A DNA stretch of 62,891 nucleotides, the filler included, from Reclinomonas americana ATCC 50394 (Eukaryota), in the NCBI GenBank assembly GCA_048213135.1. It is 5 parts of 3 records of this genome, joined end to end, with 100 filler letters (N's around TTAATTAATTAA, not from the genome) between each part and the next. Parts side by side here need not be neighbours in the genome. Positions count along the whole stretch, not along the records: positions 1 to 12,944 come from PS015442.1; positions 13,045 to 20,724 come from PS015442.1; positions 20,825 to 43,494 come from PS015442.1; positions 43,595 to 53,205 come from PS015443.1; positions 53,306 to 62,891 come from PS015445.1. One strand, given 5' to 3'. Position numbers and translations under genes: made by a program. Each line of letters starts with the position of its first letter. Positions within the stretch are counted from its first letter, which is position 1. Under the pieces are notes generated by a model. It did no database searches, had not been told where the DNA came from, and saw only the letters and a list, made by a program, of their open reading frames with translations. Below, one piece after another: positions 1,998-61,954 of the stretch.

Positions 1998-4900
1998 ATG
2001 AGCGCGAGGCTGCGCACCAGCGGCCTGCGGCGGCCTTCATCTGCGGCATCCACTGCAGTGGCAAGTGGTGCGTCTTGTTACTCATAACAAAAGTATGTGC
2101 TTGTTTGTGACTTTGATGGTGATGAATGAATAGGAGCGACGCCGTTTGTGCCGCTGACCACTCCGAATCACGCATCGTCTTCCGGCAACGACGATGCGAC
2201 CAGTGTCGTAGTGCGCGTGAGACCACAGAGTGCAGCTCCGGCTGCGTCACCACTGCTCTCCCCGTCGCCCACACCGCAACAACAACAACAACAACAGTCG
2301 TCGGGGATGTTGGCAGCCGCGGCCGCAGCAGCCGCCGCGCACCACTTTCACCGGCATTCACCCGTGCCTGCGCAGTCGCCTTCTTTGGCTGCTGTGTCGT
2401 CGTCTCTGATTCGTCCGTCGTCGGCGGCACCGGCGTTGGAGCGGCGAAAGTCAGGCAATGCTGCGTCTTTGTCGTTGGCTGTGTCGTCGGCGCATCGTCC
2501 ACTGGAGGGCGTGGCGGCGTCGGAGGCTGGCGCGCGTGAGTTGTCTGCGGCGTCGATGGATTTTGATGATGAGCTGTTGGATGTCGAGGATGATGGTGAC
2601 GAAGATGATGATGATGATGCGGAGGAGGAGAGAGCGGAGGTGCGAGAGCATGTGAGTAGGTTACAGCAGCGGCAGGGTGTGCGGCCTGTGGTGGCCACGG
2701 CCAGTGCCAGTGACAGTGATGGGGAGGCGGAGCGTGCTGGAAGGCGTGTGCCGCGCGGTTCGCCGGAGCGGGTGGTGGTGACGGGGGAGCGGCGAGGGGA
2801 GCAGGAGGCGGTGGGGTTTGCGCCGCGGGCGGCTGTGGCGCCGGCTCATGTGACGCCTTCTGCGGCGGCGGCACCGACCAGCTACCCACCGCGGTCGACG
2901 GCATCGCCATCCGGAGTGGTTCCCTCGTCGGCATCGTCAGCAGCGGCGGCGGCAGCAGGAGCAGCGCCAGGGATGCCATCGTCCCGCTTTCAGGAGCGAA
3001 GGCCGGTGTTGGCGACAGACGTCGGCACATGTCTCGGTGAGGGTCGATGGTTGTGGGAAGATAGGGGAGAAACACAAGCTGATGGTTTCTCGTGCAGGTG
3101 ATTTTGACATGCTGAGTGAGATTGGGCGCGGTACCTACGGGACCGTGTACAAGGTCCGCTCGCGCCGTGACAAGCGCATTTACGTGGCCAAGCAGATCGT
3201 GCTTCGCAATATGAAGCCGACTCGGCGTCAGAAGGCCCTCTCGGAAGTTACGTCTCTGCAGGTCCGCTGGCTGCTGCTCATTGTTTTCTCATTCCCCGAC
3301 TCGCTGCAGGCTCTGTTGCTGCGCGACATTGATCACCCGAACATTGTGCGCTACTACTCGTCGTTTATGGACAACGACTCACTGTACATTATCATGGAGG
3401 TGAGGGAAACGTGCACTCGTATTTTACTTTCTCCGGATATGCGCTGACTGCTTGATTTTTTGCGTCGCAATTGCTCAGTACGCGGAGCGCGGCGACTTGC
3501 ACCGCCTGTACAAACGACACAAGAAGAAGCACGCGTATTTTTCCGAGAGATTACTGTGGAAGCTGGCCAGTGAGCTGGCGTCGGCGCTGGTCTACTTGCA
3601 CGACCAGCACATTATCCATCGCGATCTCAAGTGTCTCAATGTTTTTCTCACGGCCGACAAGCGAGTCAAGGTGCGTCTACTTGCGGCACATACATGTCTG
3701 TGCCTCTGTGCATGTGCGTGCGTTCCAACATCAATGCGGGCAGATTGGCGACCTTGGCGTGTCTCGTATTGTGGGAGAGGACGAATTTTTGCACACGCAA
3801 GCCGGCACACCGGCCTTCTTTGCTCCGGAGCAAGTACGCAAGAAACCGTACGACTACAAGGTCGATGTGTGGGGCTACGGCTGCCTGCTGTACCAGCTGG
3901 CAGCGTTGCACCCGCCATTTGAGGTGCGTTTAGCGGGGGAAGATGGAATTTCTCTCTCTCTCCATGCAACTGACGTGGGTCACTCGTGTAGGGCACCAAC
4001 GTTTTCGATCTGGCCAGCAACATTGTACACAAATCACCAGCGCCACTCTCCAATCACTACTCATCACGATTCCGTGCTTTCCTCGGTACACTGCTGGAGA
4101 AGGTGCCGGATAAGAGACCAGGTGTGTGTTTCTCCTTTTTTCTCGTCGGCTTCTATTTTCTTTTCCTCGGCGTTTGACTCTTGTGGCAGCCATGCGCGAT
4201 GCGTGCTCGTTGATACCTCCAGAACTGGCACCGCACCTCCCGAACGACATGTCACGACACGCCACCGAGACGTTCTCCTCGTCCACCGTTGCCTCGACCG
4301 AGGACTCGGTGCGTCCACCTCGATGTTTTCTTACTGTGTCTGGGGGAAGGTGTTTCTCAACTTCCTTGTCACTGTAGGTTCGCTTGGTCAGTGTTGGGCA
4401 GTCACCGGCAGCGCAGCCCGACAATCAGCGCCAGTCCCGCGCCTCGCGCCCGAGTCAGCCGATCCGCAGCCGCAGTGCTGGCTCCATTCCGGTGATTGCC
4501 GAGGCGGCTGTTGCAGCAGCAGCGGCGGCAGCGGCGGCGGGAGACGCACGAGTGTTGCGTTCCTACAACGTGGAACGACGCGACTTCTTTGTGTGTCTGA
4601 CACCTTCGTGCGTGTAGGTTGTCGCCCCCAATCTCCCGCCCGCTGACAAGTCGACCGACCGCGGGCAACGATTCCGACGGCGCGCATGCAGTGGTGCGTC
4701 CTGTTTTGTCGGCGGGTCAAACGCCTCGCGTCGCCAGCGGTCTGCAGCACCAGCAGCGCATTGTCGGTGCCGCGGCCTCGGGTGGCACGCCTGCCTCGGT
4801 GAGTCACGCGTGTTTATGTGCGTTTTACATGAAGCGTGTTGTGACTCACCAGGGTTTGCGCGTGCGCGCTAACAGGATCAGGTGCACGGATCGAGTCGGC

Positions 4901-6066: not shown

Positions 6067-8078
6067 ATGGCAACGGCCTCTCCTTCCTCCTCCTCGTCCA
6101 CCACAGGAGGCACTCTGTGGAGTGTGGACTCGCCCGAGGCGCGCTTCTGGGAACGCGATCTGGCCTCCTCTATTGGTCGCACCAATCAGTACGCGGCCGA
6201 TCGCCTCGTCATGCTGCGTGAGAAGGAACGATCAGGAGTTGCGTGGATACACACACACACACACACAGAAAGAGAGAGGGCGACGCACACACACATGCGC
6301 ACACACTCTTCTCACGCGATTCTGTGATTCCTTCCCTCTTAATCACTCTCTGGCAGATGTTGCGTCGATCCTCGGCGTACTATGAGATGCGATCACGAGT
6401 GTGTGCGTTTGCCAAGATGAAGCGCGATGAGCGACTTCGCAGTTGCGTGTGATGCTCTCACAGTGTCTATCTCTTTGTCACTGCACACTGAATCATCCGC
6501 GTTGTGTTAGAGCTCTCACAGCAGCATCGGCGAGTGGGCAGTGGCGGAGGAGGAGGAGGACTGCACGAGAACACTGCGGAGCTGTCGTACTCGTCGCCAC
6601 AGAAGCTAAAGAGTGCGGCTGCGGGTGGTGGGGCCAGTGGCTCGGGAAGGCGCATCAGTTATGATCGCAAGCGCACTGAGGTTTGCTGGTGTTCGTGTGC
6701 TGCGTGGCGCGCGGAAACCGCGCCTGACACACCCAGCGGCGATTGTTGTGGTTGTTGTTGTTGGCAGAGCTTCAGCTCGTTCACCGACTTTAGTGTGTCG
6801 TCGATTGGTGGCTTTGACGGAACGTTGCGTGCGGCGGGCGTGTACATGTACGTGGAGGTGCGCGATGGATGCTGATCTTGTTGGCGTGCAGTGAGGGCGA
6901 TTCGGATAACAGCAACAGCGAGGGCGGCCTCGGCGATGCTGACACGCCGCCGACCGAGCAGTACGCCTTTCAGGGTATCTTCCAGATCTATGACTTTGAT
7001 GCGCCACATGCTGGTTCGTCGCGGTTGTGGTTCGCGCGATCCATTGTCAATGCCTCACAGAGCAATCGCAAACAGGGACGACGGTTCNNNNNNNNNNNNN
7101 NNNNNNNNNNNNNNNNNNNNNNNNNNNNNNNNNNNNNNNNNNNNNNNNNNNNNNNNNNNNNNNNNNNNNNNNNNNNNNNNNNNNNNNNNNNNNNNNNNNN
7201 NNNNNNNNNNNNNNNNNNNNNNNNNNNNNNNNNNNNNNNNNNNNNNNNNNNNNNNNNNNNNNNNNNNNNNNNNNNNNNNNNNNNNNNNNNNNNNNNNNNN
7301 NNNNNNNNNNNNNNNNNNNNNNNNNNNNNNNNNNNNNNNNNNNNNNNNNNNNNNNNNNNNNNNNNNNNNNNNNNNNNNNNNNNNNNNNNNNNNNNNNNNN
7401 NNNNNNNNNNNNNNNNNNNNNNNNNNNNNNNNNNNNNNNNNNNNNNNNNNNNNNNNNNNNNNNNNNNNNNNNNNNNNNNNNNNNNNNNNNNNNNNNNNNN
7501 NNNNNNNNNNNNNNNNNNNNNNNNNNNNNNNNNNNNNNNNNNNNNNNNNNNNNNNNNNNNNNNNNNNNNNNNNNNNNNNNNNNNNNNNNNNNNNNNNNNN
7601 NNNNNNNNNNNNNNNNNNNNNNNNNNNNNNNNNNNNNNNNNNNNNNNNNNNNNNNNNNNNNNNNNNNNNNNNNNNNNNNNNNNNNNNNNNNNNNNNNNNN
7701 NNNNNNNNNNNNNNNNNNNNNNNNNNNNNNNNNNNNNNNNNNNNNNNNNNNNNNNNNNNNNNNNNNNNNNNNNNNNNNNNNNNNNNNNNNNNNNNNNNNN
7801 NNNNNNNNNNNNNNNNNNNNNNNNNNNNNNNNNNNNNNNNNNNNNNNNNNNNNNNNNNNNNNNNNNNNNNNNNNNNNNNNNNNNNNNNNNNNNNNNNNNN
7901 NNNNNNNNNNNNNNNNNNNNNNNNNNNNNNNNNNNNNNNNNNNNNNNNNNNNNNNNNNNNNNNNNNNNNNNNNNNNNNNNNNNNNNNNNNNNNNNNNNNN
8001 NNNNNNNNNNNNNNNNNNNNNNNNNNNNNNNNNNNNNNNNNNNNNNNNNNNNNNNNNNNNNNNNNNNNNNNNNNNNNN

Positions 8079-8110
<32 letters not shown>

Positions 8111-9015: not shown

Positions 9016-9070
9016 TTGTACTTTATCATAAAGAAAGGCGGAGAGCAAACACTGTCACTCTCGCCGAGTG

Positions 9071-12944: not shown

Positions 12945-12988
12945 NNNNNNNNNNNNNNNNNNNNNNNNNNNNNNNNNNNNNNNNNNNN

Positions 12989-13000
12989 TTAATTAATTAA
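12989..13000. other. Artificial scaffold linker TTAATTAATTAA (also at 20769-20780, 43539-43550, 53250-53261)
   Basis: The same palindromic six-frame-stop 12-mer sits between N runs four times, and genes on either side are truncated. Confidence 0.95.
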
Positions 13001-13044
13001 NNNNNNNNNNNNNNNNNNNNNNNNNNNNNNNNNNNNNNNNNNNN

Positions 13045-18098: not shown

Positions 18099-19483
18099 NN
18101 NNNNNNNNNNNNNNNNNNNNNNNNNNNNNNNNNNNNNNNNNNNNNNNNNNNNNNNNNNNNNNNNNNNNNNNNNNNNNNNNNNNNNNNNNNNNNNNNNNNN
18201 NNNNNNNNNNNNNNNNNNNNNNNNNNNNNNNNNNNNNNNNNNNNNNNNNNNNNNNNNNNNNNNNNNNNNNNNNNNNNNNNNNNNNNNNNNNNNNNNNNNN
18301 NNNNNNNNNNNNNNNNNNNNNNNNNNNNNNNNNNNNNNNNNNNNNNNNNNNNNNNNNNNNNNNNNNNNNNNNNNNNNNNACAGTTCGTGGCCGACATTGA
18401 CGCCATCATTGCGAGACTACACGAGATTCGTGAGAACGCCCTTGACTCCATCACCAAGGACACGAAGCGTGTGGTCAGCTCGTGCAACTGTTGCGTCTCG
18501 CTGTCTTTCCAAGCAACGTCAAAAAATGCACGTGCCAACTTCTGTTCCCTCTCGCAGCCTTGCAGCAGCGTATGAACGAGACCGTGAATTCTACCGGCAC
18601 CGTGCTGCGCTCCCTGCTGCGCGGCCTGGAGCGTGTGCCGCAGGGTGCACTCAGTGCCGACGGTGACGAGCTGCTGGCCATGCGGACTGGCGTGTTTGGC
18701 ATGGAGGCGGCCGCCGAGGAGCCGGGCGTGAGCCTGCCGGTGTTCTTCCAGGAGGTGGAGGCGAGCTGGAATGCTGCTGAGCAGTGCCTGCACCAGTGCC
18801 GCTGCATCAAGGACACGGCCGAGTCGGATGACACGACCCAGCCGAACTCGGCGGTGGCGTTTGTGGCGGGCATCAAGGGTGGGTGGGGAAGGGAGAAGGG
18901 GGGGGGGGGGGAGGGGAGGGAGGGGGGGAGAGGGGGAAGGGAGGCGAAGGAGAAGGAGAAACGGGAGGGGGAGGCTGAGTGCATGATCTGTAAGCGGAAG
19001 TGAGAGTAGAAGTGAGAGTGTGTGTGTGAGAGAATGAGAAGGGAGGACGAGGGCTGAGTGCATGATCCGTGAGTGGAAGTGAGTGCAGAAAGGAGAAGGG
19101 GAAGGGGTGAGGAGTGCCTGTATGCTCCGTGAGTGTAAGTGAGAGTAGAAGGGAGTGTGTGTGTGAGAGTGAGAAGGGAGCACGACGGCTGAGTGCACGA
19201 TCCGTGAGTGGAAGGGGTGAGGGGTGCGTGTATGATTGAGAGAGAATGAAGAGAGCGTGTGTACGTGTGTGTGAGAAGGAGGGAGAGAACAGCACTTGCT
19301 GATGGTGATGTGCACAGACCAACTGGAGCGATACAAGCCGGCAGTGTCGGTCGGATTCTTGGTACGTCGTTGTCTTTTGAATTGTGCGTTACGCAAACTG
19401 GCTGTGCTCACCCACAATGGCATCTGCAGTACGGCACCACTGGCTACGAGGAAGACGACGACTTTACCAACTACGACTACTGA
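16831..19483 (+). CDS. RING + B-box + coiled-coil (TRIM/RBCC-like) E3 ligase
   Basis: RING CIIC...PKCALEHPYCLPC...RCLLC; B-box CEVHQKPLAYFD....LYCADC....YEVVPLKEAL; then a long heptad-rich helix. Stop at 19481-19483. Confidence 0.8.
18972..19215 (+). repeat. Intronic degenerate minisatellite (core GAGTGCATGATCCGTGAGTGGAAG, about 4 copies)
   Basis: The core recurs near 18977, 19056, 19113 and 19191, separated by GA/GT-rich spacers. Confidence 0.75.
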
Positions 19484-20400: not shown

Positions 20401-20824
20401 CTAGGAGGTCAAGCTTGCCTGGGTCGACGTCCGGAGAATGGGTCACAAATCAAGGGTGGATGTTGAACGGAGCCCACGGTGTCGAGACTAGACATATGGT
20501 GCCGAGGAGGCGAACGTTAACAGGACGTTAGGAGGTCAAAGTCTCGAGCTCGACGTCCAGACAAGGGGTCAAGAGTCAAAGGTGGAGGGCGCAGAACCCG
20601 AGAGGCTGCTGCTTGGCGCATGATACCAAGGCACACAGGACGTTAGGCGGCCTAGGTTGGTCAAACACTCAGCAAACGTCGCCAATCTCTTCCAATATCC
20701 GTTCCGTGCTTTCATGCTCCTCCGNNNNNNNNNNNNNNNNNNNNNNNNNNNNNNNNNNNNNNNNNNNNTTAATTAATTAANNNNNNNNNNNNNNNNNNNN
20801 NNNNNNNNNNNNNNNNNNNNNNNN

Positions 20825-37687: not shown

Positions 37688-40600
37688 ATGGCGTCGTCGG
37701 CTGCTGACCAGCGCGCGACGCGCAAGGTCATGGAGAAGAGCGAGTATGTTCGCGGCCCGTGGTCGGTCGAAGAGGTGTGTCCCTCTCTGCTGTCTCTCTC
37801 TGTGTGTGTGCGCGAAATGGCGGCTCTCGCTGTCGAAGCACGGGCACTTTTTTTTTGTTGTGGCGGAAAGGAACCGGTACAACACGCACTCTCCCGATTT
37901 GTGCCCACACACTCTCTCCTCTGTGCACACACACACGCACGCTCTCTCCGCTGTCTGTCTGTATGCGTGTACGTGCGCGGGTTCGGGTTGTTGTTGTTGT
38001 TGCTGTTGGCGCGCGATGCTCTCTTGCTGAACGCCACGCCCCCCCTCCTCCTCTCTCTCAACGCACGCACACTCTGTCTGTCTCTCTCTGCGCCTCTGTC
38101 TCTCCATATCTCTCTCTGTCTGTGCATCACTTGTCGGTTTGACGGCTGATTTGTGTGTGCGTGCACAGGATCAAATGCTGCGCGACTTGGTGGAGAAAAT
38201 GGGACCGAAGCGATGGTCGCGCATCGCACAGACGATGCCGGGGCGCATTGGAAAACAGTGTCGAGAGAGGTTTGTTTGATTTTTCTTTTTTCTGCTCGTA
38301 CATACATGGGCATGATTGTGTTGTGTGTGCGCATGTCACCCGTTGCGATCTGTGTCATTTCTCGTCGCTCTCTCTCTTTCTCTCTCCGTCCCTCCGAGTG
38401 TCGGAGGAAAGGGGTGTTTGTGATGCCAGCATCGCAGTGGGCGAGAATTAGTCCCTCGACCTCTGTTTCGCCCGAGACAGGCGTTTGCTCACGCACACAC
38501 ACGTTCACAGATGGTACAATCACTTGTGCCCTGGTGTGCGAAAGACCGAGTGGACAGACGAGGAAGATGCTCGGATTCTGGATGCACACCAGCGACTTGG
38601 AAACGGTGCGTTGTGGTCGAATCGTTGGATTTGTGTGCCACACGTGCCAGAATGTGAATCGCTCATGGGGTCCATTGTGCTTGCAGCGTGGTCGCAAATC
38701 GCACGAGCGCTGCCCGGACGCACAGCCAATGCTGTGAAGAATCGCTGGCACTCCACCCTGCGGAAACGTATCAATGGTGGAGTCGATGGGCCGCCGAGCC
38801 CCACCATGTATGGATCGGCGCCGCACTCGATGGCGCCCGACATGCTGCTGATGAGCGCCAATGCCGTCCCCATGGATCTCACACTCGGCGCGAATCGCAA
38901 GCGGCGGTGCGAGTACACGCTGCCGTCTAGCCCCAGTAATCTCATGAGGAGTGTCGCCAAGTCGTTCCAACAGCGCAAGAATCGCAAGCGCGGTGCGTCT
39001 CTCCAGGACTTGCCTGGCAATCATGTGTGTATTCTGACGTTGAGCTGTAGGCGGTATGGAAGACGACGATGACGAAGACGACGATGACGACGACGATGAC
39101 GAGACTGACTCATCGTACCCGATGACCACGTCCATCTCCACGGGGCCTTCCACACCTGCACCACCGCCGATGTTTGACGACGCGGGAGAGACTGGTACGT
39201 GTGCATGCGCTGACTACTCACTGCTCATTTTCGTCACTCATTGTGCTGTGCAGCGAGGAAGCGACCACGAACCAATGCCCACCAGCCGAATTTGGGAGAG
39301 GAGTTTTCACGCAGTGCGCCTGGTTTCGATTTTGCCGAGTTCCAGCATACCATGGCCAAGAACCACGCTGCTGCAATGCAACAGTGGGGGGGAATGATGC
39401 CGCCCGGTCAGGTCAGTCGCCTCACCTCGGCTGTCCTTCTCTTGCGCACAATCCGACTCACCACGTATCTCCTCGCAGCCTTCGTACGCCCCAATTCCTC
39501 TCATGTATGGCGGCCCAGTGCCTGCCATGCCCTACGGCGCCGTGCCCATGGGTGTCGCTGGTGGTCCACCACTGCCACCACCGCCACCACCACCGCCAGT
39601 CGCAAGCATGGGATTGCCGCCACCACCGCCTCCGCCCCCACCAGGGTCGCTCATGTCGGCGCCGATGATTCCGCCCGCTGGCATGCAAGCTTCGCTACCG
39701 CCGCCACCACCACCACCACCACCAACACAACAACACATGGCGAGCATGCCGACGCAGGGTGTGCCCATGATTCCCGCCGCAGGTTCACAGCCACCAACTG
39801 CCAGCATCGCCGCGACAGCAGCGTCAACAGCAGCAGCAGCATCAAAACCTGGCCATCTGTTTGGCGCACCTGTACCCAATCCGTTCAAGTCTGGCGAGCC
39901 CATGTTGCGTTTTCCCCGCTGCTGCTGCTGTGACTTGTCCACTTCCCTCACTTCGTTATCCTCCTCCCTTTCGTGCAGTCAACTTGCGGCTTCGCGTGTA
40001 TTTGGCTCGTTCCGATCTCTGCGCAACTCGCTGTTCCTGCCACCGACTGCCACAGAGAGCAATCAAAAGGGCAAGACGGGTGACGATGCCCGCGGCGAAC
40101 TGCCGCTGCCAGAGGACGCGGACCGTGTCAAGTGCGACAATGGCCGCAATGTCTCCATCTACGAGTACTGGAGGTACCGAGACTGCACACCGGCACTGGA
40201 TCAAGTTGCGCAACTCTCTCGTGTGAACTGCTGCAGAATGCTGGTGATGCTCACACGCACACGCACGCGCACAGCTTGGTCTCGACATGAGGTTCGTCGA
40301 GTCCAACATCACTCGGTCGCTGGAGGAGGCGGCGGTGGAGGAGGAGGAAGAGGAGAGCAGCGGGTCGGCGCAGGCACCAGATGAGGCAGCCACAATAATC
40401 TCCAAGAGGCAACGTCCATCGCTGACCGTGCAACTCGACGGCATCAAGACAGAACCGCAGCATGACAATGTCGGCAGCGTTGCTGAGCCGTCGGAGCGCC
40501 GTGTGGACGAGGATGTGATTGGAGACTCGGAGGAGCCGGTGAGTGCCGATCACGCCGTCGCTCTTTATTTTTTATGGGCGTCATTCTCACTAGCATGGTG

Positions 40601-43494: not shown

Positions 43495-43593
43495 NNNNNN
43501 NNNNNNNNNNNNNNNNNNNNNNNNNNNNNNNNNNNNNNTTAATTAATTAANNNNNNNNNNNNNNNNNNNNNNNNNNNNNNNNNNNNNNNNNNN

Positions 43594-45028: not shown

Positions 45029-45547
45029 AGTCGCAACTCTTGTTGGAGGAGCGAAACGAGACAGGAGTTTAGCAAAAAAGTACAATACCATGCCTGTGAT
45101 TATTATCGAATTCCGCATTATGCACGATGATGATATTAGTTAGTTACGTGTTGNNNNNNNNNNNNNNNNNNNNNNNNNNNNNNNNNNNNNNNNNNNNNNN
45201 NNNNNNNNNNNNNNNNNNNNNNNNNNNNNNNNNNNNNNNNNNNNNNNNNNNNNNNNNNNNNNNNNNNNNNNNNNNNNNNNNNNNNNNNNNNNNNNNNNNN
45301 NNNNNNNNNNNNNNNNNNNNNNNNNNNNNNNNNNNNNNNNNNNNNNNNNNNNNNNNNNNNNNNNNNNNNNNNNNNNNNNNNNNNNNNNNNNNNNNNNNNN
45401 NNNNNNNNNNNNNNNNNNNNNNNNNNNNNNNNNNNNNNNNNNNNNNNNNNNNNNNNNNNNNNNNNNNNNNNNNNNNNNNNNNNNNNNNNNTTTCTCCTTC
45501 CTTCCCTCCCTCCTGTAACGCTGACTGGTTCTTCCTTCCGTTTGCAG

Positions 45548-47306
45548 GCGTGGCACCAGCAGCCACCGCATGTGCCCGTGTTCGGCAAGGGCAACAATGT
45601 GGTGCCGCTGATTCACATCAACGACCTGTGCCAGATTCTGTACAATGTGGCGGTGAATAAGCCCGAGCGCAGCTACATTCTGGCGGTGGACGACGGCAAC
45701 TGCACACTGCGTCAGATTGCCAAGGTGAAGAGAGTCTCTCACACTCCTCTCCCCCCCTCGTGCGTCCGTGCATGCTCATTGCGTTGCGGCAGACCATCTC
45801 GACGCACCTGACCACCGGCGACGTGGTGCACCTGAACGAAGACGAGTTTGCACTGTTCCCGAACTTTGAGTTCTTCCTGGTGAACCTGCGTTTCGAGACG
45901 GGAGTGGCCAAGGAGTTCGAGTTTGAGTGGACATCGCAAGAGGGATTTGCGGAGAATGCGGAGAAGATCATGAGCGAGTACCGCAAGGCGCGTACCATTC
46001 AGCCAGTGCGCATTGTGGTGGCGGGTCCACCGGCCGCCGGCAAGAGTCTAGTCAGCGAGCGCATTGCGAAGAACTACAAGCTGCCGCACCTGAAGACCAG
46101 CGAGGTCATTGCCGAGTATGTCGGCCAGAAGCAGTGGCTGGAGGAGCAGGAGGCGAAGATCGCCGCCGAGCAAAAGGCCAAGGAGGAGCGCGAGGCCAAG
46201 ATTGCCGAGCTCGGTTAGTTCGCGAACTTGTAGCTGTGCTGGAGGCTAGAGAACAGTTTGCTCATTGACTGGACTGTGCAGAGGAAAAGGAGGAACCGGT
46301 TCCCGACGACCTGCGCAACCCGCCCGGCCTTCTCACCGAGGACGAGGAGGCGGCGCGACAGGAGAAGATGGATGCCATTCGCGAGGCTCTCGAGGCACTC
46401 AACGAGCTGAAGGAGGAGGGCAGCGGCCGGTTCGTTTTCAATTTGCACAGAGCCGCACTGCAAATCCCACTCCTGTTGGTACTGACCATCCTCCTCCTCG
46501 CCCAGGTTCACGGACGAGGGTCTGACAAAGATCTTCCGGTGGAAGTTGGGTCAGAAGACATGCCTGAATCAGGGCTTTGTACTCGACGGATACCCGCGGA
46601 CACTGCGACAGGCACGACTGCTGTTCGCTCTTGGTGAGCTCTTTTCTCTTTTCTTCTTCTTCTCCTGTACCCGGTTGCTAACCGGATCCGTGCGACAGAG
46701 GGCGAGGATGGAGACGAGGCCACTGGCCCACCCGCCGATCCAGAGCGTTTGCCCGAGTTTGTGCTGACCGTCACGGTTTGTGTGTGGTCTCGTGGTGCTG
46801 TGACCGTTTCCTAGCAAACTCACTCTTGGTTTGGTTACACAGGCGCCATTGGATGTGCTCAAGGGCCGTCTGTTGAGGTTGCCGGAGGCAAACGTTGTCG
46901 GCACGCACAACACCGAGGCCGGCTTCAACCGCCGCTACGAGCACTACCAGCAGAACGCCACCCCCGACAAGACGATGATTACGTACTTTGAGGAGAACGA
47001 GTGCGTGACGCGTGCAGTCGAGTCCAAGGAGGGCAATGTGGAGGAGATGCTGGCAGCAGTCGTCGACAAGGTGGGCGCCCCGCGTAACTACGGTCTCACC
47101 CCCGACGAGGTCGCGCGTGTGGAGCAGGAGGAACGACTGCGGCAGGTGTGTTGAGGGTTCCGTCTTCTTGTCGTCCGTCCATCCATAGGCTGACGTGCTT
47201 TGTGTTGCAGCGTGCCGAGGAGCAGAAGCGCGAGGCAGAACGAGCCGCGCTGGGCGACAAGGAGCGCGAAGAGTACCAACGGCGAGAGATGCGCGAGGCC
47301 GAAGAT
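45548..47306 (+). CDS. AK7: Adenylate kinase 7, central exons (kinase domain)
   Basis: PVFGKGNNVVPLIHINDL, P-loop GPPAAGKS, CLNQGFVLDGYPRT, GTHNTEAGFNRR, GAPRNYG. Confidence 0.9.
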
Positions 47307-48004
47307 GTTGCGTTTTTTTGGGGGGCGAGTGCTCGATTGTGTANNNNNNNNNNNNNNNNNNNNNNNNNNNNNNNNNNNNNNNNNNNNNNNNNNNNNNNNN
47401 NNNNNNNNNNNNNNNNNNNNNNNNNNNNNNNNNNNNNNNNNNNNNNNNNNNNNNNNNNNNNNNNNNNNNNNNNNNNNNNNNNNNNNNNNNNNNNNNNNNN
47501 NNNNNNNNNNNNNNNNNNNNNNNNNNNNNNNNNNNNNNNNNNNNNNNNNNNNNNNNNNNNNNNNNNNNNNNNNNNNNNNNNNNNNNNNNNNNNNNNNNNN
47601 NNNNNNNNNNNNNNNNNNNNNNNNNNNNNNNNNNNNNNNNNNNNNNNNNNNNNNNNNNNNNNNNNNNNNNNNNNNNNNNNNNNNNNNNNNNNNNNNNNNN
47701 NNNNNNNNNNNNNNNNNNNNNNNNNNNNNNNNNNNNNNNNNNNNNNNNNNNNNNNNNNNNNNNNNNNNNNNNNNNNNNNNNNNNNNNNNNNNNNNNNNNN
47801 NNNNNNNNNNNNNNNNNNNNNNNNNNNNNNNNNNNNNNNNNNNNNNNNNNNNNNNNNNNNNNNNNNNNNNNNNNNNNNNNNNNNNNNNNNNNNNNNNNNN
47901 NNNNNNNNNNNNNNNNNNNNNNNNNNNNNNNNNNNNNNNNNNNNNNNNNNNNNNNNNNNNNNNNNNNNNNNNNGAGAGAGAGAGCGAATCATGCGACCAC
48001 GCAC

Positions 48005-48860
48005 CGACTTGAACAGCGGATGCAGCCAGTCCTCGCCGAGGCCATACGGAATACCCGTGTGAACGACATGCGAGCGCACATTGTCGCGACGCGGGCGCTT
48101 GTGCACCAGCTTCTCAATCTGCGAGCATGGAGAGACAAAGAGAGAGCTCAGTGGGACAGGCTGCGTAAACAAAATAACACGGCAACCGAGACACACACGC
48201 AACATCGACAATGTGCTGGTAGGCGGGATTGGTGCGGCGCTTCACCGCCAGATCCTCCGTGAACGTCTCGTCAGGGTTGTCGGGATCACGAGGCACACGA
48301 TCCCACGACATGACACTGCTGCGCACAATCAGCGTCTTGTGATCCATGAACTCGGCGTTGCGCAAGACTGTGTCCCACATGAGAAAAACTGATTTGAGAT
48401 CGCCACAAACACACACTTTATCCAACGCAACAGTTGACGCATTTCAGCGTCTCCTCTGGCCTCTCCAGCACATCATAGATGATAATGTTGGCCTCCAGCC
48501 ACGCCGCCCACAGCGCCTCGTCACTGCTTCCATCCTACACGCACACAAAACAAACCAGATGAACATGGTGTTCAACTCACTCTCTCCTCAGTCACAAGTC
48601 AACGCAACAATGAAACGCGTCACATGCGACAGCACACTGGGACTTCCAGAGCCCGCAGGCGCAGCATCAGAGGACGACGAACCAGCCGCAGCCGCAACAG
48701 CCGCAGCAGCCGCCTCCATCACAGCCGCAGTGGGCGGTGCCGTGGCCAGCGACTCGACATTGACCGTGCCAAACACCTCAATGCCCTGGTCCGCCAGCAG
48801 CTTGCTCAAGTGCCGACCCAGAAACGTGTCACACGGCGACAAAAACGCTTTCTTCACCAT
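48005..48860 (-). CDS. AK7: Adenylate kinase 7, N-terminal exons (NAD-binding-like domain) on an inverted contig
   Basis: MVKKAFLSPCDTFLGRHLSK, IIIYDV, SSVMSW, FTEDLAVKRRTNPAY, GIPYGLGEDWLHPLFKS. The phase-0 donor fits the AWHQ.. acceptor at 45548. Confidence 0.85.
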
Positions 48861-49277: not shown

Positions 49278-52200
49278 ATGAAGCGGAGGCGACGATCGCG
49301 TTCTGCGACCAACGACGGCGATGGCGAGGATGATGATGGCGATGCGCCTCCTCCACCTCCGCCTCCTCCAGCAATGATGCAGGTGGATGATGCCAATGAC
49401 GCGGATGAGGAGGATGAGGACGATGACAATGACGACTCCAAGGCGGCGGCGGCGATGACGACGACGACGACGACGACGACGCGGTTGAGAGCGTTGACGC
49501 AGGAGCTGTTGAGCAGTGGCAAGGCGGTGACAATGGCGGCGCAGAGTGCGCTGTCGGTGGTGGGGGGCGCGGCAAAGGGTGGTGGTGAGGAGGATCCAGT
49601 CGAGGCGTTTGCGTACAGGATGGCGCGCAATAAGCATGGCTTTGCGCGGGTGGCGGAGGCGAGCGCGGCGCGCATTGTAAAGTGCGTTTGTGGTGTTGTG
49701 TGTGTGTGTGTTTGTAGATGTGCATCTGCACGTCCGACACCCCACTCTCTCTTCTCTTCCTCGCACACTCTCGCTCACCCGAGCACGCGTACACACATAG
49801 TATCGAGTGTGCTCTCCTTCTCGTACCTCCCTCTTCTCTTTGTATGCATGTTCGATTGAGTCCTCGCTCTCTCTCTCACACACTCGCTCTCTCTCCCACA
49901 CCCGCACGCACAGGATACTGAGCAAGCTGCATGGAACCTACGTGGGCGGGCGTGCACCGGCCACGCAGGCCGAGTGGACCGACAATATGGAGCCCGTGGT
50001 TGACTTGCTCGACAATTTGTACGAGATTGTAGTTGCGTGGTCGAACATCACAGCCACCATCAGCTGTCGCAGTCCACTCACGTTGTGTGGCGTCGTGCAG
50101 GACACGGCGTTGGATGAGGCGCAAGGGAAGCGCAAGACCGGCAAGGGTGAGAAAGCGACGTCGGCTGCCTCGTCGACGACCACCTCACAGAAGAAGAAGC
50201 TGGGCATGGACGACCTGCGTCGCCCGGTTCTGCTGCGGCCGCAGCTGCGATGGGGCGACGTTGACAACGCCATGACGCTGTTCGCACCGAAACTCAAGAC
50301 CAAGCCGAATGCGTTGTTGTCGCTGGAGGAGACGTACGCGCAGGGCGGAGTGACCGACACACCTGACGGTCCCGCACCCGCTGCGCTGGCCAGTGTGGAG
50401 GAGTATGCGCGATCGCTTGGTGCTGTGTCGTCAGCATCGTCCGCGTCGGCGTCTCCAATGGTGGCGGGCGGGCGGAGACAGTGCGTCTCGCTGTTGCTTC
50501 TTCTGTTTATTGGTTTTTCGCACGCGAGTTGCTGAGTCGTCTTGTCGCTGTGCAGATTCCCGCACCCGTACGGACCAGAGCTGAAAGCGCTCGACTTCAC
50601 CGACGAGAGGCATCTGACTGCCACCCGTGAGCAACTGTTCCGCAAGGTCGAGGAGACCGAGTGCCAGTGGGTGTCCACGCGAGATGAGCTCGAAACCATG
50701 GCCGCAATATTGGATGGGGAGAGCGAGATCGCCATTGACTTGGAGGTTTGTAATGTCCATGAAGTCTCTCTCATGGTCGCATGTCGAATGTGCTCATCGC
50801 CTTGGTCTCTACAGCACCACAATTTCCGCTCCTTCACCGGTTTCCTGTGCCTCATGCAAGTCTCCACGCGGACGCAAGACTTTTTGGTGGACACGCTCGA
50901 GCTGCGCGAAGACTTGCACATTCTCAACTCGTCGTTCACAAACCCCAACATCGTCAAGGTGTGTAGCGCTTCTGTATTGAAGGCATGGTGGCAGTCATCA
51001 TTGTGCTCACATGCCAGCGTGTGGATCAGGTGCTGCACGGTGCACAGTCCGACGTGATCTGGCTGCAGCGCGATCTGGGCCTGTACCTTGTCAACATGTT
51101 TGACACGGGCCAGGCAGCTCGTATTCTCGGTGAGTCCCTCGCACGAGGAGTGCGTGCGCAGAGCTCACTGTTGGCTGACGCACTTGTGGCATGCAGAGTT
51201 TCCGAGTTTCGGCCTCGCCTTCCTGCTGAGTCACTACTGCGGTGTCGTGGCCAACAAGAAGTATCAGAAGGCCGACTGGAGAATACGGTGCGATTTTTCG
51301 TGTGTGAGACTGTGCATTGACCCACATCACATCACTCTTATTCTTTGCGTTGAAACAATGACAGACCGCTGCCGCAAGAAATGATTCGCTACGCCCGCGA
51401 GGACACGCACTATCTGCTGTATGTGTACGACCGCTTGCGTGCGTCGCTGGCGCAACAGGGCCAGCAGCGCGGTATGGGCGCGGAGCTGTTGCGCCAAGTG
51501 TGGATCAAGTCGCGAGACATTTGCCTGCAAACATTCCAGCCCGACATCTTCACCGAGGACTCGTACATGAACCTGCTCGAGAAGCTCGGTGGTCGTCGAC
51601 TGCGACAGGAGCAAATCAACATCTTCCGAGCACTGTTCAAGTGGCGCGACTTTGTCGCTCGCTTGGAGGACGAGTCAACGAGCTACGTGCTGCCGAATCT
51701 GTTGCTCATGCGGATAGCCGAGGAGGTACCGCATGACGTGGACCGATTGTGTGCCGTGGCCAAGCCCATTCCTCCGCTGCTGCAACGCTACAAGCATGTT
51801 GTGATGCAAATCATACAACAGGCACTGCAAGAGAACGTTGCGTGGCGACGTGCTTGTGTGTGCGAGTGTCACGCGTGATGTCGTGCTGACCGAGGATGTA
51901 CGCAGTTTGACTTTGCGGATCAGTTCGAGGCCATTCGCTCGATGAGCCATGGTACAGCTCGATTTGCATTCAATTTCTTTCTCGTTGTGTCTGACTGTTT
52001 GTTTCTGCAGGCGACAAGGCCAGTGGTGCGGGTGCAGGATCGTCTGCTGGTGCCACGGCGACGACGACAACCACCACCACAACAACAACAACAGCGACAG
52101 CAGCCGCCAGTGCACCATTGTCGGCATCGGCTGGATCTGCTGCTGCAGTGGTAGGTGGAGCTCGTAATGGATCACGAGCGCGCACTGCCGCGGCATCCAT

Positions 52201-53205: not shown

Positions 53206-54301
53206 NNNNNNNNNNNNNNNNNNNNNNNNNNNNNNNNNNNNNNNNNNNNTTAATTAATTAANNNNNNNNNNNNNNNNNNNNNNNNNNNNNNNNNNNNNNN
53301 NNNNNGGTCAGTTCAAAATGCATCTCGAGAATTTTCGACACGTGCCAGCAAAACCCATTTTTTTCGCGCCTCACTGGTCGCCCGTCGACGTGGCGCAGTG
53401 CATAATGTGCGCCACATGGCGGTGAAGCTGGCAAGCTGTCACGAAGACGATGCGACCGATCTGTTGTTGAGAAAAAATCGGGACACTGTCCAGCAAATCG
53501 TCTGAAAACGGACAGAAATCTTCCGTTTCACTCGCGCAGCTCCCGCTGATTGTCACCAGTGGACAGACTGGACCTCAGTTTGAAGCGCAGGAGCTGGTGA
53601 ACGAGATGACATGCGGCCTGCCGCCAGCTAGCCAGCAGAACTTGAGAAACATGTGACGCACTCAACGGTCGTCCGTAACCGAAAAAAACGCGTGCCATCG
53701 TCTGCGTGTGTGAGAGAGTCTCCCTGATGCCTGTCGTTGGCGAGAAGGCTGTGGCGAGAGCCGTCATCGTCTATCTGACTGATACCCCGAAGAGCGGGTG
53801 GAAAACGATCGCAAGGCGGCGCAGCGTCAACATTTCCACGAAACGAGCGATTTCGAGATTTTCTTCGACTCAAGCACGATCTGTTGGACTGCTTTTCTTG
53901 GCCCAGGTTCATTTTTTTCGTCTTCTCGACGCAGGAGTGTGATCTTCGCGAGATGCGGATTCCGAATACACCCGTATACACCCGGTGCACAGGCACTCGT
54001 TCAGGAGCTGCGGGTCACGCAAGATTGGGTGTCAAAAATCGACCATTTTTTGGCTGCTTTGGTCGTCCAACGGTCATTATTTTTCTCATTGCCTGTGCAT
54101 TTTTGCTGCGCCGCTTCGCCGCCACTTTGTAGTGCAGCAAGTAAGGTACCATAATACACCCCATCACACCCCCCAGAAGAGACCGGAATGGGGTGAAAAA
54201 AGCGGTCGCGAGCTGAAAACCCGCGAAAAGGGTGTATTTTCCGCTCCGACATTGCGCTGCGAACACACATTGTATTGGCACAAGCGGCTCCAGACACTCT
54301 C

Positions 54302-57300: not shown

Positions 57301-58817
57301 GTGCGTCTCCTTCTCTCCTTTCTGTGCATTCGCTGTGCATTCGTGGACTCACGCGCGCGCGCGCGGGCGGACTGATGCAGAGCTTCCGGAGCACACGGAT
57401 GCGGCGACGATTGTTGGTGTTCTGCGAGAGTTGATCCACTCATTACCACCCATCAACATTCACCTGCTGCGCTGCACCTGTGCGCTGATGATGGAGGTGG
57501 CCGAGCACAGTGCGACAAATCGCATGCCACTCCAAAACCTCTCGATTGGTGCGTATCGCTGCGATAAAAGTCAGCACTCTCTCTCTCCCCTCTGCTCACA
57601 CACCGCACCGGGGACAGTGTTCGGGCCGGCTTTTTGCCGCAGCATGAGTGACTCACTGGAGACGGCACTCAGCGACACGAATTCCGCCAACCGGTGTGTG
57701 GCGCTGATTTTGCGACACTTTTCCGACCTGTTTGGCGTTGCGTTTTCATCTGCTCGTGTATGAAACGAGGAGCGCAATCGCTGACTTGACTGCGCATTGA
57801 CAGGACCACCGCTCCATTCTCGACATGATTGCCGGTGGTGAGTTTGGTGACTAGCTTCATTGAGTTCGCATCCAACTCACTTGCCGCTTCACAGAACCGG
57901 ACGATCCCATTGTGCCACAGCGACCACCACCAGCCGACCAGGACCTGTCGTTGTGGAACGTGCCTGTGTCCTCGTTCTCGTTGCTGCCACTGCCCGGAAT
58001 GCCGCGTGTGGAATCGGAACCGGCGCCGGTGGCGGCAGAGCCCTCACCAGTTCAGGCAGTGGTGGATGTCGACGTGCACCACGACGACGATGCAGCAGTA
58101 GCAGTAGCTGCGGCGCCACCACCTGACGACTCTTCCAGCGACCATGCACTCCATGAGCCGGCTCCAGTGCCTGTGGATGATGATGTTGACGACAAAGGCG
58201 ACGTCGATGATGCAGGTGGCGCAGACGATGTAGACCACGCCGCAGCGGGTGAGGCAGGCGACGAAATCATTGACGACGACGGCGAGAATGGCGATGGTGC
58301 ATGGACGGACTCGGGCAGCGAATCCGAGTCGTCGCCGTCGCCGCCACCACCGCCGCCAGCCGATGACGATGCCGTCAGCGACGATGATGCCTACGGTCGT
58401 GGTGCTGTTGACGAAAACGTAGAGCCGGCCGCTGCCGTTGGCGACAGCGAGTCATCGACTGCAGCGGCGGACGAGCCGGCAGCTGTGGTGGACGACGAAA
58501 GAAGGCCCGAGTCGATGGGCAGCCTGACGGCGGAGCTTGGCTCCGCGGGTGATCTCCTCGATGCCGCCGGTGCCTTCTCGCCCGTGTCTTCCGGATCTCC
58601 GTCATCGTCGCCATCGTCGTCGGCAAGTGGTGGCGGTCGCGAACGTGCGCCCACCGACATGCTGTCGATTCGAGCACGAACAATGGCCGCCGCCTTCCGT
58701 TCCGGTAGTGTTCCCGGTGCCACCATCGCCGCCATGTTTGCTTCCACCCTTGTCACATCCCCCAAGAACGTCGACGGCGACGACGAGGAGGATGAGAAGA
58801 AGAAGAAGAAACCATAA
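54302..58817 (+). CDS. RhoGAP with PH and C2 domains and an acidic low-complexity tail (two gaps)
   Basis: PH GTLHFY...DLDQWREAL; C2 LSVSVWSAQNL..RPYVVL...SPQWREEF...LHVTVWD; GAP FFGSPL, GLNFDGVFRVSG, VASLIKLYFRELPEP, NRMPLQNLSIVFGP. Confidence 0.9.
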
Positions 58818-58898
58818 AAACGTCGACCCCATCTTCGTCCTGCATCTCATCCATCGATCTTCTTGTTGTTGTGTTGTTGAGCACGAGTAGAGAAAGCC

Positions 58899-59773
58899 AT
58901 GTTCTACTTGGTGAGTCTGTCTCTGCCTCCACAGCACGCCAGTCGCACACCACGACGAGCTCACCTTGATCGCACACACAGCTCAAGCTGAAGAGGCGCA
59001 TTCAGTTGCAACCAAAGGAACTTGGTCGCGAGATCGCCGACAAGATCAGACGAGCACTCATTCGCGAGGTTCGTGAGAGAGAGAAAACACACGCACGCAT
59101 GTCGAGTTGAATTTCGATCTCTCTGCAGGTGGAAGGCACATGTGACCAGAATGGATACATCATTGCGTTGCTGGAGATCACACACACGGGTGCCGGCAAG
59201 ATCGACGAGCTCTCCGGTGCGGTGTCTTTCCAAGTCGAGTATCAGGCGCTCATCTTCAGACCCGAGAAGGGTGAAGTGTGCGACGGCGTGTGTCTGTCTG
59301 TGTCACAGGTGCGGTGTCTCGCCGCCCTTCCTTTCTCCCCCCCTCACGCGCGTGTGCTCATCTTCTGAGTCACCACACGCGCACACAGCATGCCATCATC
59401 GTGCAGGTCGGGCCTGCGCAGGTGTTGGTGCCGCCGCAAGTTGTGGATTGACATTGATCGACTCCTTTTCGTGTCTGTGGCCTGCTGACGCACTTCCTTC
59501 TCTCTCTTTCTCTGTTCCCCACAGATGATTCCCGAGGAGATGAAGTTTGACAACTCGCAGACGCCCATGTTTGCCAACGAGGATCGCTCACTGAAGATCA
59601 CACGCGGCACCGAGCTGCGCATTCAGATTTTCGGCACCAAGTTCATGGGCACTAGCATTGTTGCGTGTCGACTGTCAGGTTGTGCTTTGTGTTTTCGGGG
59701 GCTGATGCAGGCTGTCCATGCGCAGAACGCACTGGGATCCATTCAGGGTGACTACTTGGGTCCAATCGGGTGA
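58899..59773 (+). CDS. RPB7: RNA polymerase II subunit RPB7
   Basis: Exons 58899-58910, 58982-59068, 59129-59308, 59389-59439, 59525-59659 and 59726-59773 give 170 aa: VEGTC..NGYII, FRPEKGEV.DG, GP, ALGSIQGDYLG. Confidence 0.93.
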
Positions 59774-59834
59774 GGTGTGGGAGGGGAGCAGCGAGAGCAG
59801 CACGAGAGGCAATGTACACTCGCGTGGCTTGTCG

Positions 59835-61954
59835 TTATCCGTCAATCAGCTGCTCGATTCTTCGCTCTCGTGCCGCCATGTCTTTTCTCTTGTCGACATC
59901 TCGGAAGTATCTTTCCGTCACGTGTTCCACAGCCGAGGTGAATACCCGTGCCGCATTCTGTCGCAGCTGCTGTCGCGGGGAGAGGTGAGTTGGCGACTGC
60001 GACAGTGGCGGTGGCGACGCCGTGTCTGGGCGATGCGGTGCCTCGGTGGCGTCGCCCGAGTTCTCCTGCGCCTGGAGGTGCGTCCACACCTCGAGGAGCT
60101 GCCGCTCCGACTCTTTCAGCGCCACATCCACCAGTACGGGCTGAGGAACGAGCAATTCTGCGCGGACGGGGCAATGAGTAATGGGTGCGCCGCAGTGACG
60201 GATATCACACGCTGACCAACCCGCAGCACTCGGCCAGTGTGTGGACATGCGCGGTGAGAGGCGAGGAGACGCCCGATGGGTGCGTGGCGAGTGGGGAGAG
60301 CGTGGAGACTGCGGGGCACGCGCGGACATGGGTTGCGGCGCCGACTCCAAGCGAGCCGACACCAACTCAGCATTTTCCTGCAAAGCAAACAAACTGTGAG
60401 CTGAGAAAAGCAAACAAGAAGCGATCGAAAGCAGAGCCGACCTTGACTTTGACGACCGCGGCCAAGTTCTCCAGCGACTCGCGTTGCTCAACCGACTGCG
60501 GCCGGCTGTCGTCGTCACTCAGCTTGTGCACCGTCGTGAGCGTCTGTCGCTCAATGCCCACTTGCAGAGCCTCGAGCTTGGAGCGCAAATGTGCCGACCA
60601 CTGTGACGCAACCGCAGCAGCAGCAGTATGGGAGTGTGAGTGAGTGCACGAACGGTGACGAGTTCTTCACAAAAGAGGATGCGCACGTTTTGCGGGAGTG
60701 CCGCGTCTGGTCCTCCCACTGCACCCGCCGGTCCGAGCAATCGCAGATTGGTGGCACCTGGCGGAGGCGTTGGTACGGGCGTGGTGGCTGCCGACTGTGG
60801 CAAGCGTCAGAAGCCGCGATGGACGTGAGCAGAGTGAGAGACGCACGCACGCAACTGCACGCTGTGCTCGTGCACTATTCAGTCGACTGGCAGGCACCGA
60901 CGGCAGCGACGGCGTGAGCGACATGGCCGACAGGGAGCCGGAGGGGTGGGGAGGTTCGTTTCCAGTGGCGTTGGCAGCTGTGCATGCGCGTCAGTCGTTG
61001 TGTGTTTCCCAACCGCTCGCGAAAGCAGAAACTCACCTCCAGTGTCGCCCCCTGGCTGCGCCGCATCGCCACCGGCAGAGTCGACCAGTGCCGGGCTCGG
61101 CTGCTCACGCGAGCGCACCTCTGGCGGAATTCTGCATCGCCCCCCACTGATCAGTCTCATGGCCAACAACAAGTAAAGCGAACGAGCAACGCACAATGTC
61201 GGCATGGTCAGCGGCACCTTTGCAGGCGACTTGGGTCTCTTTCTCGGCGTAATCACTGCCACGGAGGCGACAAGAGTGAGCAGCACTGCTCAAACACAAC
61301 ACACACTCACAGAGAGAAGAGAGTGCGCATCGCAACTCTCACGCTCCTGATCGCGATACATCATGTCGGCCGCAGCCTCGGCCAGCAACGTATTGCGTGG
61401 CTCCAGCTCCGACGCACGCGCAAAGCACCGGTGTGCCTCGCGGTACTGATACGACCGAGCATACGCCTGTGTGCACAGAGTGAGGGGAAAGGAGTGATTG
61501 CGTGATCAGTGTGTCACACGAGTGTGCTGACCTCGCCTCCCAACACCCAGCCCTCCACATCGTACGGAAGCAGACGCATCATGTTCTCGGCATCGAGACG
61601 CGCCGAACCCGACAGGCCCAGCTTGAGATACGAACGTGCCCTCAGGCTCAACAGAAAACCATCAGCGGGCTCCACCACCAAACCCTGTCATCATCAAATG
61701 GCGAATGCGTGTGTGTGTGTGTGTGAGAAAGAGAGAGAGGTAGAGGAGAATGCGTGTGAGAGAGTGGCACCTTGGTGGCGAGGTCGGCCGCCTGTTGGTA
61801 CTGCCCGCGCTCAAACAAATCAATGGCGCGTTGCGACAGCTGCTCGTGCTCACTGGCCGCTTTCCTGTAAACACCAGCCAGTCAAGTCACTCACTCACTC
61901 ACTACGCCACACTCTCTCTTTCACACACAGGCACACGGACCTGCGCGAGGCCAT
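59835..61954 (-). CDS. TPR-domain protein with low-complexity/coiled C-terminal part
   Basis: AIDLFERGQYQQAADLATKGLVVEP....LSLRARSYLKLG...ARLDAENMMRLLP, YREAHRCFARASELEPRN. Exons stay in phase to IEQLIDG*. Confidence 0.75.

Follow-up and report, generated by a model that had tools for sequence, protein, structure and literature searches.

The window and its genes

The stretch of DNA analysed here (the window) comprises 62,891 bases of Reclinomonas americana ATCC 50394 (assembly GCA_048213135.1) and is gapped nuclear sequence of a flagellate eukaryote with introns of about 68 nucleotides (nt). It contains 6,565 N in 20 gaps, and the protein-coding genes in between are cut by many short introns. 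The subject of this work is a class of these introns whose 5' splice site (donor) mostly reads GTT[GA]CGT, the usual donor consensus displaced by one base, and which was not found after an exon ending in G, the base that most ordinary donors of the window follow. The analysis draws on the window sequence itself and on protein homology.

A Pfam scan of the 150 longest among 439 stop-free stretches of at least 240 nt gave matches to a protein kinase, an enoyl-CoA hydratase, an E2 enzyme, a RhoGAP, a dual-specificity phosphatase, a Myb protein, an Rrp6-like exonuclease with HRDC, GCN5L1 and an AAA or adenylate-kinase domain. Rfam families were absent from the window at the gathering score, and at E up to 1 three weak microRNA (miRNA) or small RNA matches and no small nuclear RNA (snRNA) were found.

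Introns were called by a gene finder self-trained on the window, a dynamic programme over codons with explicit intron lengths and GT...AG ends, in which split codons were checked for stops. Its donor model comprises the intron positions +3 to +7 only; since no exonic base enters it, the last exon base (-1) is not biased by the gene finder. In the first pass all GT were treated as equal donors; the terms chosen by hand were limited to a length prior and a preference for YAG. In a further, donor-blind parse the donor term was zeroed and the trained acceptor, length and codon terms were retained. Two other settings were dropped: a fully agnostic parse that admitted introns of up to 450 nt gave noise, and with donors limited to three seed hexamers the parser leapt over exons. 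Self-training yielded 113 introns in 27 genes, and the final set holds 114 predicted introns. They comprise 21 shifted introns (GTT[AG]NG[TA]), 32 canonical introns (GT[AG]NGT) and 61 that fit neither pattern, some of which are surely wrong; all class statistics are restricted to the first two groups.

GTTGCGT as a donor

Already in the first pass, before any donor training, GTTGCG was joint top donor hexamer with 6 of 77 introns, level with GTGCGT and GTGTGT. In the trained parse GTTGCGT was the commonest donor heptamer (17 of 113), and it came out on top again when the donor term was switched off (11 of 145). An intron score that is independent of the donor, combining coding sequence up- and downstream in a compatible frame with the acceptor matrix and intron length, was calculated for 7,407 scorable GT sites. 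The motif GTT[GA]CGT occurs 39 times on both strands; 33 of these sites were scorable, five reach an N gap and one lies by the window end. Above the 90th percentile of the score are 52 % of the 33 sites (median 0.92), compared with 16 % of the GTGCGT, 16 % of the GTGAGT and 14 % of the GTACGT sites. The window thus holds a donor class of its own.

At the five sites beside gaps (27685, 45143, 47307 and 55558 on the forward strand, 28663 on the reverse strand) the N gap precedes any acceptor, and several assembly gaps seem to lie inside introns, just past a donor. The copy at base 37 (-) is too close to the window end for scoring. Not every GTTGCGT is a donor, since the one at 6359 (+) stands in frame within an exon (ATG TTG CGT). 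At 6824 (+) a GTTGCGT donor would give an intron of 68 nt and a GTACGT donor at 6848 one of 44 nt; both are frame-compatible and have a common acceptor.

The position of the cut could be examined by homology (a slash marks the exon-intron junction in all sequences below). The intron at 3247 (63 nt) is in frame and without stop, so that its read-through translation could be aligned to human NEK2. Residue 49 (E) of the query corresponds to NEK2 55 and residue 71 to NEK2 56; the surplus is exactly the 21 codons of 3247-3309. Likewise, the N-terminal part of an adenylate kinase 7 (AK7)-like protein, obtained by splicing three introns at GTTGCGT donors, aligns to AK7 homologues. The junction at 48203 is gapless against the homologues P0035, P0102 and P0109 across ...QHIVD/IEKLV..., and the one at 48431 is gapless against P0035 and P0102, in a region where the length varies in other homologues. 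Judged from these protein alignments, two junctions (one each by NEK2 and AK7) are fixed to the residue, and predicted cleavage at the GT of the shifted donors is supported by the reading frames of the 21 introns together with both homology checks. Boundaries lying one base downstream at both ends (G/TT...AGN/) would also preserve the frame. This reading was rejected because the base after AG is unconstrained in shifted introns (G6 T8 A4 C3), whereas the AG before it is part of CAG or TAG in 20 of 21.

In all other respects the two classes are alike. Median intron length is 68 nt for the shifted and 67 nt for the canonical class, a CAG acceptor is present in 18/21 and 26/32, a branch-like YTVAY motif 8 to 45 nt from the 3' end in 18/21 and 26/32, and the G+C content is 0.56 and 0.55, respectively. 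A single splicing machinery for both is therefore likely.

The last exon base

In the trained parse the base at -1 of the 21 shifted donors is A7 C6 G0 T8, that of the 32 canonical donors A2 C1 G22 T7. The contrast in G (0/21 vs 22/32) is highly significant (Fisher's exact p = 2.5e-7) and was reproduced by the donor-blind parse with 0/14 vs 27/35 (p = 4.7e-7). It is also visible without any annotation: at the 39 GTT[GA]CGT sites the base in front is A10 C12 G1 T16, so that 38 of 39 are not G. The sole exception at 60612 (-) is located inside a predicted intron, 11 nt before the acceptor. When the motif is relaxed to GTT[GA]CG, G stands before 6 of 82 sites; none of the six is donor-like, and their top local-score percentile is 0.76. 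Four GTTNGT donors in the ordinary register, with G at +5 and T at +6, are all preceded by G.

The class difference in the -1 base, which a preliminary description of this DNA had pointed out, is thereby confirmed. Its statement that all 30 shifted donors follow a base other than G holds as to the lack of G; the number 30 was not exactly reproduced, 21 donors being supported. That most ordinary donors follow G is borne out by the 22 of 32 GT[AG]NGT donors, and the outermost members of the described series are real, namely GAA/GTTACGT at 3247 (+) and GA/GTTGCGA at 61336 (-), where the -1 base is 61337.

At phase-0 junctions the -1 base is a synonymous third codon position. Here the last codon ends in G in 12 of 13 canonical and in none of 10 shifted cases (P = 0.005 at 41 % G in third positions). 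Four of the ten shifted codons end in A (GTA, GGA, GCA and GAA), otherwise a rare ending (P = 0.023 at 11.8 % A in third positions). The link between exon end and class becomes clearest in donors with an RCGT core (R = A or G). With G at -1 there are 10 canonical and no shifted donors, without it 6 canonical and 20 shifted ones (p = 3.2e-5); the donor-blind parse gives 8/0 and 4/12 (p = 0.0013). Among RCGT-core donors the last base of the exon almost decides the class.

Whether G is avoided before shifted donors or has just lost its preferred status depends on the background chosen. From coding composition by codon position 7.3 G are expected among 21, and P(0) is 1e-4. The frequency of G is lower in the relevant contexts, with 17 % before GTT, 14 % before GTTG and 10 % before exonic GTTG, and low-scoring sites of the shifted motif have G in 2 of 28 cases. 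Compared with the canonical -2 position (G in 5/32) the shifted -1 position does not differ significantly (p = 0.14). That the strong preference for G at -1 is gone in shifted donors is secure. The absence of G is mainly this loss of preference, and active avoidance beyond it is possible.

The individual shifted introns

The 21 catalogued shifted donors are supported by gene models or homology. Percentiles refer to the donor-independent local intron score, and the support is a gene model unless an alignment is named.

In the NEK-type kinase gene the intron at 3247..3309 (+; 63 nt, phase 0, GAA/GTTACGT...CAG/GCT) is backed by the NEK2 alignment and reaches percentile 98.8. It is followed on the same strand by an intron of 64 nt at 4554..4617 (AGT/GTTGCGT, phase 2, percentile 0.917), by one of 119 nt at 6238..6356 (GGA/GTTGCGT, phase 0) in a low-scoring gene, and by a phase-1 intron at 6442..6549 (GCA/GTTGCGT) with an uncertain acceptor: GAG is used at 6549, and alternatives at 6521 and 6541 were noted by eye. 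Further members on the forward strand are located at 18490..18557 (68 nt, ACT/GTTGCGT, phase 1, percentile 0.992), 30762..30827 (66 nt, AAC/GTTGCGT, phase 1, 0.949), 36145..36210 (66 nt, GAC/GTTGCGT, phase 1, 0.985) and 39904..39978 (75 nt, CAT/GTTGCGT, phase 2, 0.946). The 132-nt intron at 28694..28825 (+; TTC/GTTACGT, phase 0, percentile 0.79) belongs to a low-scoring gene and is of lower confidence.

On the reverse strand a CCHC zinc-knuckle gene contains the 59-nt intron at 29329..29387 (ATC/GTTGCGT, phase 2, percentile 0.973); two more phase-2 introns lie at 29508..29584 (-; 77 nt, GCT/GTTGCGT, 0.994) and 29771..29849 (-; 79 nt, CAA/GTTACGT, 0.927). The AK7-like gene, also on the reverse strand, has three. 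The intron at 48119..48203 (85 nt, GAT/GTTGCGT, phase 0, percentile 0.992) is supported by the gapless AK7 alignment and that at 48368..48431 (64 nt, ACT/GTTGCGT, phase 1, percentile 0.950) by gapless alignment in two homologues. The third one at 48535..48608 (74 nt, ATT/GTTGCGT, phase 0, percentile 0.952) has a poorly conserved junction.

Two phase-0 introns of 69 nt interrupt the Rrp6-like exonuclease gene on the forward strand, one at 50032..50100 (GTA/GTTGCGT, gene score 113, percentile 0.997) and one at 51837..51905 (AAC/GTTGCGT, percentile 0.944). In the RhoGAP gene the intron at 57737..57803 (+; 67 nt, GGC/GTTGCGT, phase 0) has percentile 0.88, and the local score favours another acceptor. 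An RPB7-like gene contributes the 66-nt intron at 59660..59725 (+; ATT/GTTGCGT, phase 0, percentile 0.967). The exon downstream of it resembles the C-terminus of an RNA polymerase subunit 7 weakly (E = 0.45), which was not used as proof, and for the exon upstream no match was found in the PDB with E up to 0.01. Two members on the reverse strand are again of lower confidence: 60788..60855 (68 nt, GCA/GTTGCGT, phase 0, percentile 0.54), for which the local score picks another acceptor, and 61286..61336 (51 nt, AGA/GTTGCGA, phase 1, percentile 0.90), the only one with A at +7.

A further plausible shifted donor, GTTGCGC after A at 37167 (-), was recognised by eye. It belongs to a PEX4-like E2 gene at 36802-37527 (-), the downstream exon of which matches Arabidopsis PEROXIN-4 with E = 1.4e-25. 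Inspection by eye revealed in this gene a micro-exon of 24 nt (37084-37061, TGEICLDV) that the gene finder had overlooked. The intron upstream of it (83 nt, 37167-37085) has the GTTGCGC donor and an AAG acceptor, and the downstream one (58 nt, 37060-37003) a GTGAGT donor. HPNV and LKSAWSP are separated by 11 residues here, compared with 10 in PDB chain 4gpr_A.

A donor probably read one base off register

The shifted donors have T at +3, R at +4, C at +5 and G at +6 in 21/21 each, and T at +7 in 20/21. Their positions +3 to +7 equal the canonical positions +2 to +6 (T, R, N with C in 16/32, G, T) displaced by one base. The canonical -2 position (A11 C10 G5 T6) is poor in G and somewhat rich in A, and it is this position, not canonical -1, which the shifted -1 position resembles. 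The preliminary description had aligned the two classes on TGCGT, with the first G of the intron in the -1 slot, and this is the natural reading of the data.

On this reading the introns would be short GT-AG spliceosomal introns of the ordinary kind, with a 5' splice site that is read one base off the usual register. The canonical string recognised would be G/GURCGU with an exonic G, and the shifted string /GUURCGU. In shifted donors the first G of the intron would fill the slot of the last exon G, opposite C9 of U1 if U1 is standard there, the next U would take the usual place of G+1 as a mismatch, and URCGU would pair as usual. The cut would remain 5' of the sole GU present. With an intron base already in the -1 slot, the true end of the exon would drop into the -2 slot, where G is not favoured, and this would explain why shifted donors are not seen after G. 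A single T gained or lost within the intron would interconvert the classes and leave the messenger RNA (mRNA) unchanged, and exon ends other than G do mostly carry the shifted form.

Much of what had been proposed earlier agrees with this. A cleavage moved to the available GT is what the reading frames and the NEK2 and AK7 homology checks support, and an exon end freed from constraint fits the RCGT-core split, in which 20 shifted and 6 canonical donors follow a base other than G. The proposed recognised element G-K-TGCGT stands as far as the consensus displaced by one base is concerned; the element actually used is narrower. C occupies +5 of the shifted donors in 21/21, compared with 16/32 at the matching canonical +4 (p = 4e-5), and of the GTT-type sites with A, T or G at +5 about 2 of 25 have a high local score, which is the base rate. 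The forms GTTGAGT and GTTGTGT are thus not used above the base rate, and GTGAGT is a common canonical donor.

Among the readings considered, the intron G in the slot of the exonic G fits best and is partly supported. Taken as a whole we regard the shifted-register explanation as somewhat probable; U1, and later U6, would be the reader of the displaced register.

Pairing with U1 and alternative readings

Several points weigh against the shifted-register explanation. With a standard U1 5' end the mean pairing energy of the 21 shifted donors is calculated as -0.94 kcal/mol vs -6.04 kcal/mol for the canonical donors, and G+1 comes to lie opposite C9 in just 2 of the 21 duplexes. A standard U1 would pair with GUUGAGU in the shifted register at -5.9 kcal/mol, yet the variants without C stay at the base rate of about 2/25. 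Because GUUGAGU is predicted to pair well and is nevertheless unused, the invariant C at +5 is not accounted for by a standard U1. A G at -1 would even strengthen the duplex by way of a bulged register (-5.3 vs about -1.5 kcal/mol), and for this reason stability alone fails to predict its absence. On the backgrounds with scarce G the probability of 0/21 is 0.02 to 0.11, with 0.02 to 0.04 for the GTT context, and thus marginal. In addition, the gene finder is noisy, with 61 of 114 introns in neither class and at least one micro-exon overlooked, every splice junction is a prediction from sequence alone, and the sample is a single 63-kb window.

The weak pairing with standard U1 leads to the question of whether the two classes have different readers, i.e. 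whether a variant U1 snRNA or a protein factor specific for UURCGU recognises the shifted donors, whose likeness to a displaced canonical site would then be partial. The shifted class is indeed much narrower than the canonical one, as the C in 21/21 vs 16/32 shows, and snRNA sequence could matter. This is indicated by a hypothetical U1 with G at position 5, calculated as a what-if only: GUUGCGU and GUUACGU would pair at -7.4 kcal/mol, compared with -2.7 for GUUGAGU and -2.8 for GUUGUGU, and a canonical donor lacking the -1 G at -7.2 kcal/mol. The shifted register would be recovered with A at -1; with C or U there, G+1 would be unpaired. Such a U1 would reproduce the restriction to RCGU and would also make the two ways to manage without an exonic G nearly equivalent. 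However, a single U1 altered at position 5 would serve both classes, which amounts to the shifted-register explanation again. Moreover, all other intron features are common to both classes, and the Rfam search of the window found no snRNA gene. A separate reader is therefore held to be unlikely.

A different arrangement would leave U1 in its ordinary frame, with G+1 paired to C8 and U+2 to A7, one of the two U's looped out and RCGU paired. Cleavage at the predicted site would follow without further assumptions, nearest-neighbour folding selects this bulged register when -1 is G, and the legend to Figure 1C of PMC4856993 describes registers with a bulge at +2/+3 for human 5' splice sites. But C9 would be free for an exonic G at -1, so that the canonical preference for G (22/32) should persist, and 0/21 was seen; at the synonymous third positions of phase-0 junctions G is found in 0/10 instead of the expected 41 % (P = 0.005). 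Because the preference for G is not kept, the looped-out U is disfavoured and appears quite unlikely. Finally, the pattern might be nothing special, a product of chance or annotation bias together with a general scarcity of G before GTT. G precedes GTTG in just 10 to 14 % of cases and low-scoring sites of the same motif in 2/28, and the hexamer GTTGCG is not over-represented (70 vs 59.2 expected; 11 of 100 shuffles gave 70 or more). Against this, shifted and canonical donors differ very strongly, in the donor-blind parse as well, half of all GTT[GA]CGT sites are at intron-like places, and homology confirms two junctions. Scarcity in context also leaves the 69 % G of canonical donors unexplained, and such an origin is highly improbable.

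Relation to known splice-site classes

Human sites read in a shifted register number just a few dozen. For a few of them the shifted U1 pairing has been established experimentally, according to the passages of two papers that deal with it (PMC4856993; PMC9311317), and both credit it there to Roca and Krainer (2009). The likeness to the donors described here is close: in the human (+1) register, too, G+1 lies in the -1 slot, U+2 is mismatched, the rest is the consensus moved by one and cleavage stays at the GU. In the oligonucleotide listed in Table 2 of PMC4856993 for testing this register, the GU is likewise preceded by A instead of G. The two systems differ in scale, with 21 of 114 predicted introns here, or 21 of 53 if only introns with a recognisable consensus are counted. 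They also differ in the core, which is URCGU with an invariant C here and AAGUAU in human. Furthermore, the standard U1 end pairs weakly with the present donors, which are known from sequence alone. A tunicate paper mentions the shifted-register idea in one passage.

Bulged-nucleotide registers of U1 and 5' splice-site pairing were reportedly described by Roca et al. in 2012. At +2 or +3 of human 5' splice sites they are treated by Tan et al. (2016; PMC4856993). As in the shifted donors, a single additional U separates the GU from the consensus tail, and the cleavage site would be the same; the difference lies in the -1 G preference, which they are predicted to retain and which is 0/21 here.

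A second, tightly conserved donor class alongside a major one is also known from U12-type introns, whose donor motif is RTATCCTT. An assignment to this type was rejected: all 21 shifted donors begin with GTT[AG]CG and are not of the RTATCCTT type. Their branch-like motifs and acceptors, moreover, do not differ from those of the canonical class. Introner elements likewise comprise many introns with an identical start, here of 7 nt. An all-against-all blastn comparison of the 53 intron interiors gave matches of 12 to 17 nt at most, within as well as between classes, which were judged to be simple repeats. Since the interiors share nothing beyond these, the shifted introns are not a family of copied introns, and an introner origin was rejected for lack of similarity past the donor.

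In the full-text literature, from which subscription papers are outside coverage, no lineage with a GUU-type donor class was among the matches listed; motif searches of the literature were swamped by primers and gave primer or miRNA papers among the matches listed. A genome paper for the organism, if one exists, may already report the pattern. The slot reading, which is partly supported, matches a known mechanism; what is new is the scale of its use and the invariant C at +5.

The AK7-like gene and features of the assembly

The adenylate kinase of the window is of the AK7 type, as found in ciliated cells. A HMMER search with its 140-residue exon against 1.84 billion representative proteins gave 639 relatives, the best being 60 % identical, and cluster look-up named AK7 in entries from Sycon, Limulus, Cyanophora and Pharyngomonas, none of them a close relative; a homology search with the same exon restricted to longer proteins gave no match. 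The gene is present in two pieces on opposite strands, the central part at 45491-47342 (+) and the N-terminal part at 47975-48860 (-), both of which run into the gap 47344-47973. Probably this split is due to a contig misoriented in the scaffold.

Pairs of 44-N blocks with exactly 12 called bases between each pair occupy 12945-13044, 20725-20824, 43495-43594 and 53206-53305, and look like an assembly or masking artefact. The 57-nt run at 18883-18939 (+), nearly all G with a few A, figures among the predicted introns, with AAG as its acceptor; it is more likely to be low-complexity sequence or a fault of the assembly.

Consequences for intron evolution and splice-site recognition

The two classes had also been thought to offer a simple route to intron sliding by one base. 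The route is not a simple one, and the window gave no sign of such sliding. A change of G+1 to T in G/GTGCGT would move cleavage one base upstream and drop one base of the mRNA, and since the AG acceptor cannot compensate by a one-base move, the lost base and the frame shift would persist. The mRNA-neutral switch between the classes is for the intron to gain or lose a single T, a concrete path by which donors could adapt to the last base of the exon.

A wider proposal is that this lineage uses one fixed element, G followed by G or U and then URCGU, whose first G comes from either exon or intron; the intron form would be standard for exon ends other than G (20 of 26 RCGT donors) and account for about one fifth of the introns. 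We advance it tentatively, as possible rather than probable. If true, it would imply that the 5' end of U1 pairs with C at +4, for example by a G at U1 position 5, and that the catalytic core routinely tolerates an extra U between the GU and the bases paired to U6. Register shifting would then be, in R. americana and for the first time in any genome, a major and selected way of recognising splice sites and not a rare exception.

The pattern bears on the extent to which splicing signals constrain exon ends, on the slack of the catalytic core between the GU and the U6 helix, and on gene annotation, since splice models built on a single position matrix would score shifted donors badly. If it holds genome-wide, it would constitute a natural experiment on the measurement of 5' splice sites, in which recognition by U1 and U6 is uncoupled from the point of cleavage, by one base, across hundreds or thousands of introns.

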